IMG/VR virus record: IMGVR_UViG_3300032236_001850
Span: 52,392-116,391 of that record
Strand: one strand, 5' to 3'
Source of the DNA: a virus
DNA length: 64,000 nucleotides
The notes under the pieces were generated by a model. The model saw nothing but the letters and a program-made list of their open reading frames with translations. It was not told the DNA's origin and made no database searches. Each line of letters opens with the position of its first letter. The first letter of the stretch is position 1. Made by a program: the position numbers and the translations under genes. This document shows, one piece after another, positions 1,962 through 51,950 of the stretch.

Positions 1962-2421
1962 AAAAATCGCAATCGAAACATTTGCGATGAATCATGATTC
2001 CATCCATGGAATCCAACATTGGGAGGAAGTTCACGAGAATGGACTTATGTTATCGAGACAACCTGGTGTGGATTTGGTGGTTGTTCGCCTTTTTGCATAC
2101 CTACATGATTGTAAAAGAGAAGACGACCATCAGGATCCGGAGCATGGCGACAGAGCTGCTGATTTTGTTGTTTGGCTTAGAAACACCGGGAAATTACATT
2201 TTTTGAAACATGAACAATATCACAAATTATGGATGGCATGTTTACAACATCATAAAGGTGTAGTCGACACTGAGGATATCACTATCGGAGCTTGCTTTGA
2301 TGCTGATAGAATAGAGCTAATACGTTGCGGCATAACACCAAGAGAAGATCTAATGAGCACACCAATGGGAATTAGGATCGCTAAGAAGATGAACGAATTA
2401 AAAACATTTAAAGGACATTAA
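1936..2421 (+). CDS. HD-domain phosphohydrolase
   Basis: His...HD...D metal-binding pattern (IQHWEEVH, AYLHDCKR, HGDRAADF). Confidence 0.55.
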   Translation: MKQHIEEIKKIAIETFAMNHDSIHGIQHWEEVHENGLMLSRQPGVDLVVVRLFAYLHDCKREDDHQDPEHGDRAADFVVWLRNTGKLHFLKHEQYHKLWMACLQHHKGVVDTEDITIGACFDADRIELIRCGITPREDLMSTPMGIRIAKKMNELKTFKGH

Positions 2422-2477
2422 ATAATTTTTTTAATTCGAAATTAATCATTACATTTGCGATATAAAAATAAAAGAAT

Positions 2478-3062
2478 ATGGATTTGACAACCTACGTAGA
2501 CTGGTGCATAGCACAACACGATAACACCAACCACATGTACGACAAATATATTCCGTACAGTTTTCACCTGAGAATGGTAGATAGAGCAGCACAGCAATTT
2601 GAACACCTTTTGGATGATACTAAAGACATGCAAACTGGTAAATCTAGAGAGATTCTAGAGGGAAGCAGAATTGGATTCGTTTCTCTTAAAATGGCTTGTA
2701 GAAAAGCTTGCTGGGGACACGATACAATTGAGGACACAAGAACTTCCTACAACGATGCAGTTAACCATCTCGGTAAAGATGCAGCTGATATTGTTTATGC
2801 AGTTACCAACGAGAAAGGTAAAAATCGTGCAGAAAGAGCCAATGACAAGTACTATGCTGGAATAGTAGAAACACCAGGAGCAGTTTTTGTTAAACTTTGC
2901 GACCGTATAGCTAATGTTCAATATGGTAAAATGACGGGGAGCTCAATGTACGACAAGTACAAAAAAGAAAATGCTAACTTTGTTACTAAACTTGGTGGTG
3001 ACGACAAAGACCACAAGCTAGCACCAATGTTCGAATATTTGTTGAATCTTTTTAAAGATTAG
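2478..3062 (+). CDS. SpoT/RelA-type HD-domain hydrolase-like protein (Mesh1-like, putative (p)ppGpp or nucleotide hydrolase)
   Basis: motif CWGHDTIEDT matches the HD(x)ED signature of (p)ppGpp hydrolase domains; downstream KLCDRIANVQY resembles SpoT KLADRLHNMR. Confidence 0.55.
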   Translation: MDLTTYVDWCIAQHDNTNHMYDKYIPYSFHLRMVDRAAQQFEHLLDDTKDMQTGKSREILEGSRIGFVSLKMACRKACWGHDTIEDTRTSYNDAVNHLGKDAADIVYAVTNEKGKNRAERANDKYYAGIVETPGAVFVKLCDRIANVQYGKMTGSSMYDKYKKENANFVTKLGGDDKDHKLAPMFEYLLNLFKD

Positions 3063-3065
3063 AAC

Positions 3066-3947
3066 ATGATAACAAGCTCAAATAAATTAGAGATATTTGA
3101 AAATTTCATATCGCTTCCCAAAAAATCTTTACAATCTGGATCAAAGATGGAAATTGGTACCAATGGTATCGGTAATTTTCTAATCAGTGGTGCTATGGAG
3201 AGAGACTCAAATTCTCTTACTGATTCAATAGAGGTACGTGCAGTTGATTATTTTCACTATCTGCATATGCACGAACACACTCTCAAGAGTTGGATCAAAT
3301 TAAAAGGTGCGGAATTATTATTTCCAAAAAAGAAGATAACAAAAATCAGATACCAATCGGTTGATGAATTCTTTAATGATGTTAAGGAGTCAATCAAAAC
3401 TCTGGAGGTAAATCCAGGTTCTGTTGAATTCTACACCAATGCCATAGAAACTGCAAAAGAAAATGGGCAAATAGCTTTCTTAGAAATTCTGAGGGATAAA
3501 AAGAACGGTGTTCTTGCGGAAGCTAAGTTATTGGAAGTTGGTGAAATCAAATATGTTACCGAGGAGGATGTTGTTAAATTTTACAAGAAAGCAAATCTGA
3601 AGGAAAGAATGCTAAAGATGACGTGGATGAAAAACTACGCCAGAATGATTCCGGACGAAGTTATAGCGGAGAAGAAAAAATACGATGCTTCTGAGTTATT
3701 CGATAACTATGTTATATTACATTTTGATAAATATGACAATTCCACCCAGATGACAAAGGCGGAGGTTGAGAAGGCCAAGGATCCAATTCTATTTGGTGTT
3801 CTTAAAGGAACCAGAAAATTGTACTTTATAGGGGATTGGATTGACGAGTACTGTGATCTAACTTTGGATAAATTCCTATCAACTCTAGAAATGGAAGAAG
3901 CTAGAAAGCTTTCAGAGGAGTCAATAAAGGAAGGATTAAAAATGTAA
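3066..3947 (+). CDS. hypothetical protein
   Basis: ORF track, 293 aa, no recognisable motif. Confidence 0.45.
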   Translation: MITSSNKLEIFENFISLPKKSLQSGSKMEIGTNGIGNFLISGAMERDSNSLTDSIEVRAVDYFHYLHMHEHTLKSWIKLKGAELLFPKKKITKIRYQSVDEFFNDVKESIKTLEVNPGSVEFYTNAIETAKENGQIAFLEILRDKKNGVLAEAKLLEVGEIKYVTEEDVVKFYKKANLKERMLKMTWMKNYARMIPDEVIAEKKKYDASELFDNYVILHFDKYDNSTQMTKAEVEKAKDPILFGVLKGTRKLYFIGDWIDEYCDLTLDKFLSTLEMEEARKLSEESIKEGLKM

Positions 3948-3960
3948 TTTTTTTCAAATT

Positions 3961-4002
3961 TTATTTTTTTATTCCGGAAGAATTTCATATATTTGCAATG
4001 TA
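3961..4002 (+). promoter_or_regulatory. conserved upstream motif (T-run / TTCGAA-like box / TATATTTGC) before 4015
   Basis: tttttttattccggaagaatttcatatatttgcaatg; TATATTTG fits the Bacteroidetes -7 consensus TAnnTTTG. Confidence 0.5.
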
Positions 4003-4014
4003 ATTAATAAAGGA

Positions 4015-50249: not shown

Positions 50250-50359
50250 AGGGACAAAGATTAAAAAGCATACATTTATATAAACACACAAAAACAATTA
50301 AACAACGAGCTTTATTTAGGCTCACACGAACAATAAATTAACAAAAATAAATTAAAATT

Positions 50360-50665
50360 ATGAAAACAAAAGAACAAAACAGACAAGATGTAGTGAACTA
50401 CTTAAGAACAACTTCTAAACATGCATTCTTTAGAGGTGAAAAGGGAATCTTCAAAATCGAGGAGATTGAGGAAGGTGTATTTAATGAGATGGTTGGTGGG
50501 ATCCAATCCAAGACAAACATCAACATCAATTGGTTTGTTGATAATTACGGTAACGATGCAAAGAACGTTATCAGAAAAAGAATATTCTATGATGGACATG
50601 GTTACAAATCCATCAAGATGAAGTATTACAACAAATTGAATGAAACAAAAAAGGTGCTTATTTAA
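50360..50665 (+). CDS. hypothetical protein
   Basis: ORF track. Confidence 0.4.
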   Translation: MKTKEQNRQDVVNYLRTTSKHAFFRGEKGIFKIEEIEEGVFNEMVGGIQSKTNININWFVDNYGNDAKNVIRKRIFYDGHGYKSIKMKYYNKLNETKKVLI

Positions 50666-50675
50666 GCACCTTTTC
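50647..50675. terminator. bidirectional terminator between convergent genes
   Basis: aaaaaaggtgctta-ttt-aagcaccttttc. Confidence 0.55.
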
Positions 50676-51021
50676 TTATTAGTAATTCTCCCATGACCTC
50701 TATGAGACCAACGAGCTTCTGAAATTCAACCTGTTCCAGTTTTATAGATCCAGCTGTTCCTTTAACTAATGCTTTTACCAAAGCTTCCATCTCATCCTTC
50801 ATCTCAGCTGCATCGAATTTACCAGCAGCAGCTTTTTCATAAACCGGAAGTTTAACTCTGAAATGATGGTAGGTTAAAAGCGCATCCCCACCTTTTTCTT
50901 TAGCAGCTTCAGTTATCTTGGTTGCACCAGCTAATCTTGTTTTTGCAAACTCTTCGAAGCTTTCGCCTTTTTTATCTCCTTCGTTTAGAAAATCCGAATA
51001 TAATTTAATGTAGTTGTCCAT
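50662..51021 (-). CDS. hypothetical protein
   Basis: ORF track. Confidence 0.4.
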   Translation of the reverse strand: MDNYIKLYSDFLNEGDKKGESFEEFAKTRLAGATKITEAAKEKGGDALLTYHHFRVKLPVYEKAAAGKFDAAEMKDEMEALVKALVKGTAGSIKLEQVEFQKLVGLIEVMGELLIRKGA

Positions 51022-51866
51022 TATGATAAATTTCTTTTGTCTGTATTTAACGAACCAAGCTTTCCTTGATTTTTAAGTTTAATGTAACGATCTGTAGCAA
51101 ATCTAGGTCTTGCATAAGTCATTATATCTAATCCCTGATTATTTTTAACAATCTCCAATGCTTTCTCTAGTGTTTCAACCATATATCGGCAATCATAAAG
51201 AGCATCGTGTGCACCATTAGGATCAACACCCAATCCTGCGGAAACCTTAGGTAAAGAGGATGTAGGTAACTTACCACTATTAGATCTTCCTATCTTATCC
51301 AATATTGCAGCAGCTTCTGGTTCTGTTTCTGCAAGTTTCTCCAATGTAGGTAAAAGGAAATACCCAAAGAAATCTTTAGTGTCAAATATCTCATGATCCA
51401 ATCCACCAAATTCTTTTCTAACATTTATCATTGGCATATCGAAAGGAGCATTTTGAATAAGTAGAATAACATCACCAAATCCATCTATAAATTCTTTAAG
51501 TTCAGTAAGTACTTCCTGTTCATCGAAGTATTGTCCGCCACTTTCTCCGTATTTATTAAACTTTAGAGCTCCAGATATTCTAGATCCAGGTAATAGTTTT
51601 TCTGCTCTTATGTTTTGATTGAGTTTTATCTTCTTGTTGTAATCTCCTATCTCTTCAAAAGTCAAAGTATCAAAATCAAACTCATAGGCAACAGCAGCTA
51701 CTTGAGTTAATTGTTCTTGTCTTGGACCTCTAAGTCCAGTTGTTTCGGTATCAAGAGCAATAAAAGTGTATTCCTTTCTTTTTTCTAACCAATCTAATAG
51801 TTCTGATTGCGTTAAATTTTTAATGCTTTCATTTAAAAATTGCGAAAATGTTGATAAATTTTTCAT
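51021..51866 (-). CDS. DnaQ-like DEDDh 3'-5' exonuclease
   Basis: Exo I motif FIALDTETTGL; Exo III motif HDALYDCRYM. Confidence 0.65.
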   Translation of the reverse strand: MKNLSTFSQFLNESIKNLTQSELLDWLEKRKEYTFIALDTETTGLRGPRQEQLTQVAAVAYEFDFDTLTFEEIGDYNKKIKLNQNIRAEKLLPGSRISGALKFNKYGESGGQYFDEQEVLTELKEFIDGFGDVILLIQNAPFDMPMINVRKEFGGLDHEIFDTKDFFGYFLLPTLEKLAETEPEAAAILDKIGRSNSGKLPTSSLPKVSAGLGVDPNGAHDALYDCRYMVETLEKALEIVKNNQGLDIMTYARPRFATDRYIKLKNQGKLGSLNTDKRNLS

Positions 51867-51910
51867 TTATTAATTAATTTTTTTATATATCCGAAAAAAA
51901 ATCTCAAAAT

Positions 51911-51950
51911 AATTTTTTTATATCGAAAACATTTCATATATTTGCTTTGT
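51911..51950 (+). promoter_or_regulatory. conserved upstream motif before 51969
   Basis: tttttttatatcgaaaacatttcatatatttgctttg (identical core to 44896 copy). Confidence 0.5.

Follow-up and report, generated by a model that had tools for sequence, protein, structure and literature searches.

Sixteen copies of a promoter-like motif in a huge Bacteroidota phage, probably read by the host primary-sigma RNA polymerase

The DNA analysed here, referred to as the window, is a stretch of 64,000 nucleotides (nt) covering positions 52,392 to 116,391 of the IMG/VR virus record IMGVR_UViG_3300032236_001850, and it carries a 34-base composite signal, A-T7-A-WW-YCGAA-N9-TAYATTTG-C, in 16 copies. All copies are on the + strand, none lies within a gene (intergenic DNA makes up 11.7% of the window), and each faces a downstream + strand gene in the same orientation. 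A sequence-only reading had reported this composite ahead of 16 gene starts; every one of these starts is an ATG with the described composite upstream, but two of them, 26677 and 47154, open just mini-ORFs (ORF, open reading frame) of 33 and 22 amino acids (aa), respectively. With the degenerate pattern ATTTTTTTANNYCGAAN9TAYATTTG and up to three mismatches, 16 matches were obtained, compared with 0.03 expected from shuffles. A 44-nt weight matrix scored the 16 sites at 43–57 bits (32–55 bits in leave-one-out scoring), and in a scan of both strands of the window no other site rose above 8 bits; since no scores lie between 8 and 42 bits, there are exactly 16 copies and weaker ones are absent, so that the earlier "at least 16" was right about the 16 and becomes an exact total. 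An independent repeat finder recovered the family as dispersed repeats of 58–75 nt (D5, D6 and D8). TAnnTTTG occurs 37 times on the + strand and 42 times on the - strand, and the upstream T-run and box accompany it at 16 sites, all on the + strand. The significance of the motif lies in the composite, because TATATTTGC by itself shows hardly any enrichment when one mismatch is tolerated (44 vs. 30).

Numbered from the T of TA in TAYATTTG (position 0), the 16 sites share one fixed register: A(-25), the T-run (-24..-18), A(-17), WW, Y, CGAA (-13..-10), a T-rich 9-nt spacer, TAYATTTG (0..+7) and C(+8). In the upstream half, A(-25) is present in 16/16 copies, the T residues at -24..-18 in 15–16/16 and A(-17) in 12/16, with T or C at -14; within the box, C(-13), G(-12), A(-11) and A(-10) are found in 14, 15, 13 and 15 copies, respectively. 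The downstream half reads TA(T/C)ATTTG in all 16 copies, followed by C(+8) in 13 and a purine at +12 in 15, and then TAATT. The distance from TA to the ATG is 12–51 nt, and 14 of the 16 copies fall within 23–45 nt. No description of this motif was found in the literature searched, and none of the papers there that name Lak or huge phages alongside promoters was found to include an analysis of the promoters of these phages.

A nucleotide search against 50,697 phage records returned no match to the window. In protein searches, the window proteins were 33–49% identical to those of the Tenacibaculum jumbo phages PTm1, PTm5 and pT24, and about 30% identical to those of Prevotella Lak megaphages and a 595-kb uncultured phage, while IMG/VR contains relatives at 75–90% DNA identity, among them a 430-kb contig (L040; 3300034116_002156). 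The window is part of a huge phage, and its known relatives all infect Bacteroidota. The lack of Shine-Dalgarno (SD) sequences noticed at the motif-bearing leaders holds window-wide: SD cores are not enriched among 103 genes, with GGAG/GAGG at -20..-4 in 7 of them compared with 10.2 ± 3.2 in random 17-mers. In the leaders of these genes G accounts for just 5–16% at -14..-5, A is enriched there, and A reaches 63% at -3. It has been reported that translation starts of Flavobacterium johnsoniae show the same "Kozak-like" pattern (PMC6847099). The nearest relatives and the translation signals both support the Bacteroidetes host proposed at the outset, so that this inference is sound; within the Bacteroidota, the host is probably a member of the Flavobacteriia.

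The copies are described below with the position of their TA site and the predicted start. Copy 1 (2425–2458; TA 2450; start 2462) reads A-T7-A..TCGAA..TACATTTGC, has orthologous copies in relatives L010 and L027, and would drive the genes 2478–3062 and 3066–3947. Copy 2 (3963–3996; TA 3988; start 4000) would drive 4015–4263 and the tRNA-like elements 4271–4327 and 4530–4654, and copy 3 (5029–5062; TA 5054; start 5066) has its box and -7 element within a hairpin at 5037–5077. Copy 4 (6582–6615; TA 6607; start 6619) heads a run of nine genes, 6630–9961. Copy 5 (9972–10005; TA 9997; start 10009) and copy 6 (12994–13027; TA 13019; start 13031) form the left and right borders of a cassette at 10022–12977, and the unit of copy 6 contains a Thg1-like gene, 13925–14773. 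In copy 7 (16273–16306; TA 16298; start 16310), whose unit includes a PRPP synthetase gene, 17081–18013, the T-run and box form the 3' arm of a hairpin at 16255–16296. Copy 8 (20694–20727; TA 20719; start 20731) is the most degenerate, with TTTTATTTT and CCGGAA, and would drive an M42 peptidase gene (20749–21822) and a NADAR gene (22237–22716).

In copy 9 (26627–26660; TA 26652; start 26664), the box is the 3' arm of a hairpin at 26611–26650; this copy would drive a 33-aa P-loop stub, the gene 26778–27251 and NAMPT (27256–28941). The T-run of copy 10 (28978–29011; TA 29003; start 29015) is the U-tract of a terminator hairpin at 28952–28984. Copy 11 (30981–31014; TA 31006; start 31018) lies 9 nt past a terminator at 30941–30972 and would drive the gene of an SPFH protein, 31047–32972. 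TTGAA replaces TCGAA in copy 12 (38684–38717; TA 38709; start 38721), which would drive 38760–39317. For copy 13 (44285–44318; TA 44310), the predicted start coincides with the ATG at 44322 and a leaderless transcript is predicted; at copy 14 (44899–44932; TA 44924; start 44936), relatives carry an insertion of 396–399 nt that ends at -43. In copy 15 (47097–47130; TA 47122; start 47134), CAAAA replaces YCGAA; a terminator at 47056–47086 lies upstream, and a 22-aa ORF and the tRNA-like element 47232–47308 would be driven. Relatives L003 and L030 have 83–84 nt instead of the 229-nt stretch of copy 15, and no motif copy was detected there. Copy 16 (51912–51945; TA 51937; start 51949) would drive the gene of a helix-turn-helix (HTH) protein, GcrA-like and sigma-70 region-4-like, at 51969–52697.

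The spacing between successive copies is 0.6–7.7 kb, and the units comprise one to about 19 genes. Convincing hairpins adjoin or overlap 6/16 copies (TA 5054, 16298, 26652, 29003, 31006 and 47122) and are absent at the remaining 10; the earlier statement that the motif follows almost directly after terminators therefore applies to six copies but not to ten, and of the proposed set of many independently terminated units the many short units stand, while independent termination holds for some only. The hairpin at 5037–5077 (+ strand; 15 bp and a T-tract; -23.7 kcal/mol for the segment) encloses the -7 element of copy 3 and probably terminates the unit before it; in L010, L027 and L036, the substituted bases still form G-U pairs on the + strand. 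The terminator-like hairpins overlapping copies 7 and 9 are also on the + strand, as are the terminators upstream of copies 11 and 15, the latter at a similar distance of 9–10 nt, whereas the hairpin at copy 10 appears bidirectional. The idea that the T-run is a mere terminator tail was ruled out because 10/16 copies have no hairpin; a tail role is seen only at 29003.

As for the downstream half, it has been reported that promoters of the primary sigma factor of Bacteroides fragilis (sigma-ABfr) have a -33 TTTG and a -7 TAnnTTTG element (PMC6847099, PMC7366714). The -7 element of F. johnsoniae has the consensus TAHHTTTG, running from T-12 to G-5, with the start site 4–5 nt further, while AT-rich patches near -18 and -28 stand out more clearly than its weak -33 element (PMC6847099). 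The -7 box of the phage motif matches TAHHTTTG in 16/16 copies, which bears out the match to the Bacteroidetes sigma-A element that had been proposed, and a purine lies exactly 4 nt past its G in 15/16 copies, the spacing found in F. johnsoniae promoters. With T of the -7 box set at -12 (PMC6847099), the predicted leaders are 0–39 nt long. Scans for sigma-70-type -35/-10 promoters returned counts at or below chance, with no excess. A phage-encoded RNA polymerase, either single-subunit or phiKZ-like multisubunit, might be thought to read the motif, with the match to TAnnTTTG being coincidental, as motif length and invariance (~40 bits) resemble phage-polymerase promoters and the phage is very large, with the window holding part of its genome. 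However, the 8-nt match to the host element is exact and at the correct distance from the start purine, this -7 box, extended to TTTGCA, is shared by host promoters and by microviruses and small phages of Bacteroidota, and no polymerase domain was found among the roughly 70 window ORFs scanned. A polymerase of the phage's own is thus hardly credible.

Conservation among relatives points in the same direction. In 26 orthologous comparisons at ~80% DNA identity, TA, A, TTTG, T(-22..-18) and A(-25) were unchanged, while the free position of the -7 box toggled between T and C ten times, and substitutions were concentrated in the spacer, in the flanks and upstream of -26. The same architecture is found in more than 10 other phage contigs of 100–430 kb. 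In relatives, the predicted start of the motif lies 18–21 nt ahead of tRNA-Arg and tRNA-Met genes that head tRNA arrays, and this position upstream of tRNA genes identifies the motif as a transcription signal and excludes a translation signal. The fixed register, the conserved -7 box and the link to tRNA genes bear out the original view of a promoter family. That the motif exists is established, as are its register, conservation and position, its association with tRNA genes and its presence at host housekeeping promoters, described below. In several distant contigs, a conserved 57-aa basic protein (MATAPKRSRQ...; L026 11184–11357, L001 863–1036) is encoded behind the promoter, directly ahead of tRNA-Arg and tRNA-Ile.

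Two copies of the motif also border a cassette that is missing from a relative. In the 430-kb relative L040, a single hybrid copy replaces the interval 9997...13019 and the 2,955-nt unit 10022–12977 is absent; the upstream flank of the hybrid matches the copy at 9997, while its core and downstream part match the copy at 13019, as would be expected of the product of recombination between the two. Recombination between copies has been proposed for the PeSL elements of phage T4 (PMC4122927). With direct repeats of 60–75 nt at their borders, cassettes could likewise be gained and lost here through recombination between copies, as in T4 PeSL. Many indels separate the relatives from the window, and other breakpoints fall in five copies, at -43, -29, -25, +14 and +27. 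These indels and the hybrid would fit repeats that serve mainly as recombination or mobility sites at cassette ends, with an incidental or secondary likeness to promoters. Against this stand the strict orientation of the copies and their distance to start codons and tRNA genes, the perfect -7 element and start purine, and base-wise conservation that follows promoter logic. Many inserted cassettes also have no motif copy of their own, and enrichment of breakpoints at the motif was rejected, as their frequency there does not exceed that in intergenic gaps generally, 16 of 39 of which carry a copy. That the copies are mainly recombination sites is therefore very unlikely.

Turning to the upstream half, in start-site numbering the T-run occupies -36..-30, which is the position of the -33 element and the same register as TTTG in host rplC promoters, and YCGAA/TTCGAA lies at -26..-22. 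The sequence-only reading had set TTCGAA against the host -33 TTTG; this alignment does not hold, as the T-run fills the -33 position and TTCGAA is within the spacer. The spacing between the -33 TTTG or TTG and the -7 box is about 19–21 nt in sigma-ABfr promoters. In 49 distant phage copies, A-tracts are conserved at -42..-39 and -30/-29 from TA, outside the search matrix with which these copies were collected; counted from the predicted start, they are located at about -52 and about -41 and are UP-element-like.

The features of the upstream half raise an alternative in which a phage factor is needed: the -7 box would be read by the host sigma factor or by a phage sigma factor whose region 2 is similar, an activator or sigma cofactor of the phage would bind T7-A-NN-YCGAA much as T4 MotA/AsiA or GcrA do, and the promoters would form a middle or phage-timed class. 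It is consistent with this alternative that the upstream half is invariant and that the core of the box, TCGA/CCGG, is palindromic. On the other hand, the box is degenerate in several copies (TTGAA at 38709, CAAAA at 47122), the ortholog of copy 16 has CGTT, and promoters of Lak phages retain the T-run without the box. The composite is, moreover, nearly absent from bacterial chromosomes, as would suit a phage-specific signal. A scan of 185,579 bacterial genomes with the full pattern gave 15 stretches, of which six are in one mis-binned phage-like metagenome-assembled genome (MAG), two are in a multi-copy contig labelled Clostridiales, and seven are chromosomal, with one or two per genome and five in Bacteroidota genomes. 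The first of these sources is the "uncultured bacterium bin.88" MAG (CALAYS01...; L046, L048, L051, L054, L056 and L057) and the second the "Clostridiales MAG" contig JALFSR010000100.1 (L044/L047); both contain multiple copies of the phage promoter and are probably mis-binned Bacteroidota phage sequence.

Among the chromosomal matches, the sole isolate genome with two is that of Algibacter miyuki, of the Flavobacteriaceae, and both are exact composites. One has its predicted start 33 nt ahead of tRNA-Ser(UGA), and the second is in the rpsJ–rplC interval, immediately ahead of a leader that is conserved before rplC in other Flavobacteriaceae. A separate rplC promoter is absent in most of 80 metagenomic rplC loci. 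Where the rplC promoter was seen, in L076, L083, L085, L095, L098, L109 and L110, TTTG or a T-run lies at -24..-19 from TA, in the register of the phage T7, and TTTGCA is common to all seven; the comparison with Flavobacteriia promoters that had been suggested as a check thus yields a shared upstream register and a shared extension. The T-runs of L098 and A. miyuki lack the G, which suggests that the phage T7 is a natural variant of the -33 region. Because the full composite stands before housekeeping genes of a Flavobacteriaceae chromosome, host RNA polymerase alone can probably use it, which counts against the need for a phage factor and against the phage-specific middle or late class that had been suggested, and favours an early, host-dependent class. 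The conserved rplC leader (L049 3130–3275; loci L064–L098) reads ACATGTCC...GGAAAAACGG(T)AAAAA, followed by a terminator-like hairpin; Rfam gave no match for it, and it may be an undescribed r-protein leader.

Regulators of the phage's own are another aspect of this question. The HTH protein encoded at 51969–52697, behind copy 16, passes the Pfam threshold for GcrA (28.2 bits) and has a second, sigma-70 region-4-like HTH, and another HTH protein is encoded at 13–483; both are possible phage transcription regulators and would suit a factor-dependent promoter class. In contrast, a Pfam/PHROGs scan of the roughly 70 window ORFs found no MotA, AsiA or sigma domain above threshold, and a search for co-occurrence of the GcrA-like gene with the motif returned one close relative and no more. 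In a more specific form of the alternative, YCGAA would be the operator for a phage sigma cofactor such as the GcrA-like protein, which would possibly read a methylated site as Caulobacter GcrA does, and the 16 promoters would be a phage-timed regulon. We consider this form improbable; if it were true, it would represent a Bacteroidota counterpart of sigma appropriation common to a clade of huge phages.

A separate motif precedes many of the remaining genes, which likewise speaks against a phage factor acting at the 16 copies. This second motif, GATATATA, i.e., (G/A)ATATATA, is situated 3–45 nt before the ATG of genes on either strand that do not have the main motif, often between divergent genes (34242; 37389/37409, spanning 37389–37416; 41577; 41779; 43545; 51884; and 53983/53985, spanning 53983–53992). 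The genes without the main motif include all well-supported unit heads on the - strand, and most are preceded by (G/A)ATATATA; those behind it encode deoxyribosyltransferase-like, Gp23-like and AAA_28 kinase-like proteins, a glycosyltransferase, a metallophosphoesterase and an exonuclease. Overall, it is found no more often than expected by chance (17 vs. 11.6), but in L030 its intergenic copies are fully preserved amid diverging flanks. It has no host -7 box, may be regarded as a candidate second promoter class, and would be a stronger contender than the main motif for a phage-factor-dependent class; the analogy is with T4 late TATAAATA.

Taken together, the evidence makes it probable, at a moderate level of confidence, that the 16 repeats are promoters read by host holoenzyme of the sigma-ABfr type without phage proteins, and the motif most likely copies the host's own strong promoters. 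Several points weigh against this conclusion. The G of the canonical TTTG is missing at the -33 position in 16/16 copies, where T7 is followed by A, and conservation of the upstream half goes far beyond that seen in host promoters, as might be expected of a site for an activator or a phage sigma factor. The host scan demanded every element, so that only two host promoters are known with the CGAA box, which is missing from most of the rplC upstream regions examined. Lak phages are reported to encode sigma factors. The polymerase, the start site, the timing and the roles of the sub-elements are, moreover, inferred, and, as breakpoints are not enriched at the motif, a recombination role is suggestive only, with one clear case behind it. 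The conservation of the upstream half, the Lak sigma factors and the GcrA-like protein behind copy 16 keep the requirement for a phage factor alive, as the main, though unlikely, alternative.

The favoured mechanism, use of the motif by the host holoenzyme, would operate as follows. Region 2 of the sigma factor would recognise TAYATTTG at -12..-5, and transcription would start at the conserved purine 4 nt past the G. The T7 at -36..-30 would fill the -33 position as a G-less variant of TTTG, the A-tracts near -52 and -41 would act in a UP-element-like manner, and YCGAA (-26..-22), together with a T-rich stretch at -17..-15, would be spacer features peculiar to the clade, with a probable role in adjusting promoter strength. 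Each copy would open a short unit in the variable part of the genome, the units carrying mostly small ORFans, NAD+ salvage genes, peptidase genes and tRNA-like RNAs. Short units of such genes in a variable region are the pattern expected of strong early promoters.

The genes behind the main motif are mostly small ORFans; in addition to NAMPT, PRPP synthetase, NADAR and the SPFH protein, they encode M42 and M28 peptidases, a Thg1-like enzyme and HTH proteins. PRPP synthetase, NADAR and NAMPT belong to a cluster of NAD+/nucleotide and tRNA genes that also contains an AAA_28/NMNAT-like kinase (38061–38633, - strand) and the Thg1-like tRNA-His guanylyltransferase (13925–14773); this cluster looks like a phage NAD+ salvage set, possibly for counter-defence. 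ARAGORN found no tRNA in the window, and Rfam found only degenerate tRNA-like elements, namely 4271–4327, 4530–4654, 47232–47308 and 47862–47878, in ORF-poor stretches after copies 2 and 15. One of these has no anticodon arm, another, of 125 nt, contains a large insertion, and one combines an oversized D region with a CUA (amber-reading) anticodon loop. Stop-codon recoding was rejected as an explanation of the ORF-poor stretches, as TAG is the stop codon of 18 of 104 genes and read-through would add only modestly to the frames. The 33-aa ORF directly behind copy 9 (26677–26778) has a P-loop, GLPGSGKT, and by its appearance is the stub of a kinase or ATPase gene; around it, L017 has 918 nt compared with 136 nt in the window. 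Homing-endonuclease-like ORFs are present on the - strand at 33023–34219 and 19648–20523, and L017 has 212 nt in place of 33020–34492, which suggests that this stretch is a mobile insertion. Within 55083–63900, a 1,839-aa ORF has both collagen triple-helix repeats and DUF5122 beta-propeller repeats, and G+C rises to 0.40–0.47 over 58–64 kb; 9-nt-periodic collagen-like repeats continue to the window end, with an ATG-less open frame at 62009–63561, and these collagen-like ORFs are probably fibre proteins.

A promoter model of such high information content can serve to annotate transcription units in an uncultured clade of huge phages and to assign Bacteroidota hosts, and the copies are candidate strong promoters for Flavobacteriia genetics. 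The G-less T-run at -33, found in phage promoters and in promoters of the host translation apparatus, is relevant to the upstream half of Bacteroidota promoters, which is poorly defined, and the promoter-bounded cassette suggests PeSL-style modular shuffling beyond T4-like phages. The promoter family is useful rather than surprising, and current understanding is not overturned.

Among known systems, the motif resembles sigma-ABfr promoters in its -7 box, the start purine 4 nt on, the AT-rich spacer and the SD-less, A-rich leaders with A at -3, and it shares TTTGCA with host rplC promoters; unlike sigma-ABfr promoters, it has T7-A in place of TTTG at -33, an extra YCGAA and far higher conservation. 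Similar T-runs are known from related phages: in the Prevotella phage Lak-A1, A-T(5-7)-A precedes TATCTTTG in the same register, and in the Tenacibaculum phage PTm1, a hairpin or palindrome and a T-run precede TATATTTG, both without the YCGAA box, while a copy in a B. fragilis siphophage has TTTTCTG in the -33 region. P_BfP1E6, an engineered Bacteroides phage promoter, is strong and constitutive in uninfected cells, which demonstrates that phage promoters of Bacteroides are capable of such activity. T4 early promoters have comparable A-tracts upstream. With T4 middle promoters and their MotA box, the motif has in common a host-type downstream part and a conserved non-canonical upstream element at fixed spacing, but neither a MotA nor an AsiA homologue turned up among the scanned ORFs and the composite also occurs at host housekeeping promoters. 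The closer parallel is with T4 early promoters and PeSL elements (PMC2839356, PMC4122927), where many near-identical host-type promoters are likewise spread over a variable region of small ORFs; as in T4 PeSL, some copies are fused to terminator hairpins and one copy-bounded cassette is missing from a relative, although the phage lineage and the sigma type are different, the stem-loop is present at 6/16 copies and one recombination event is seen.

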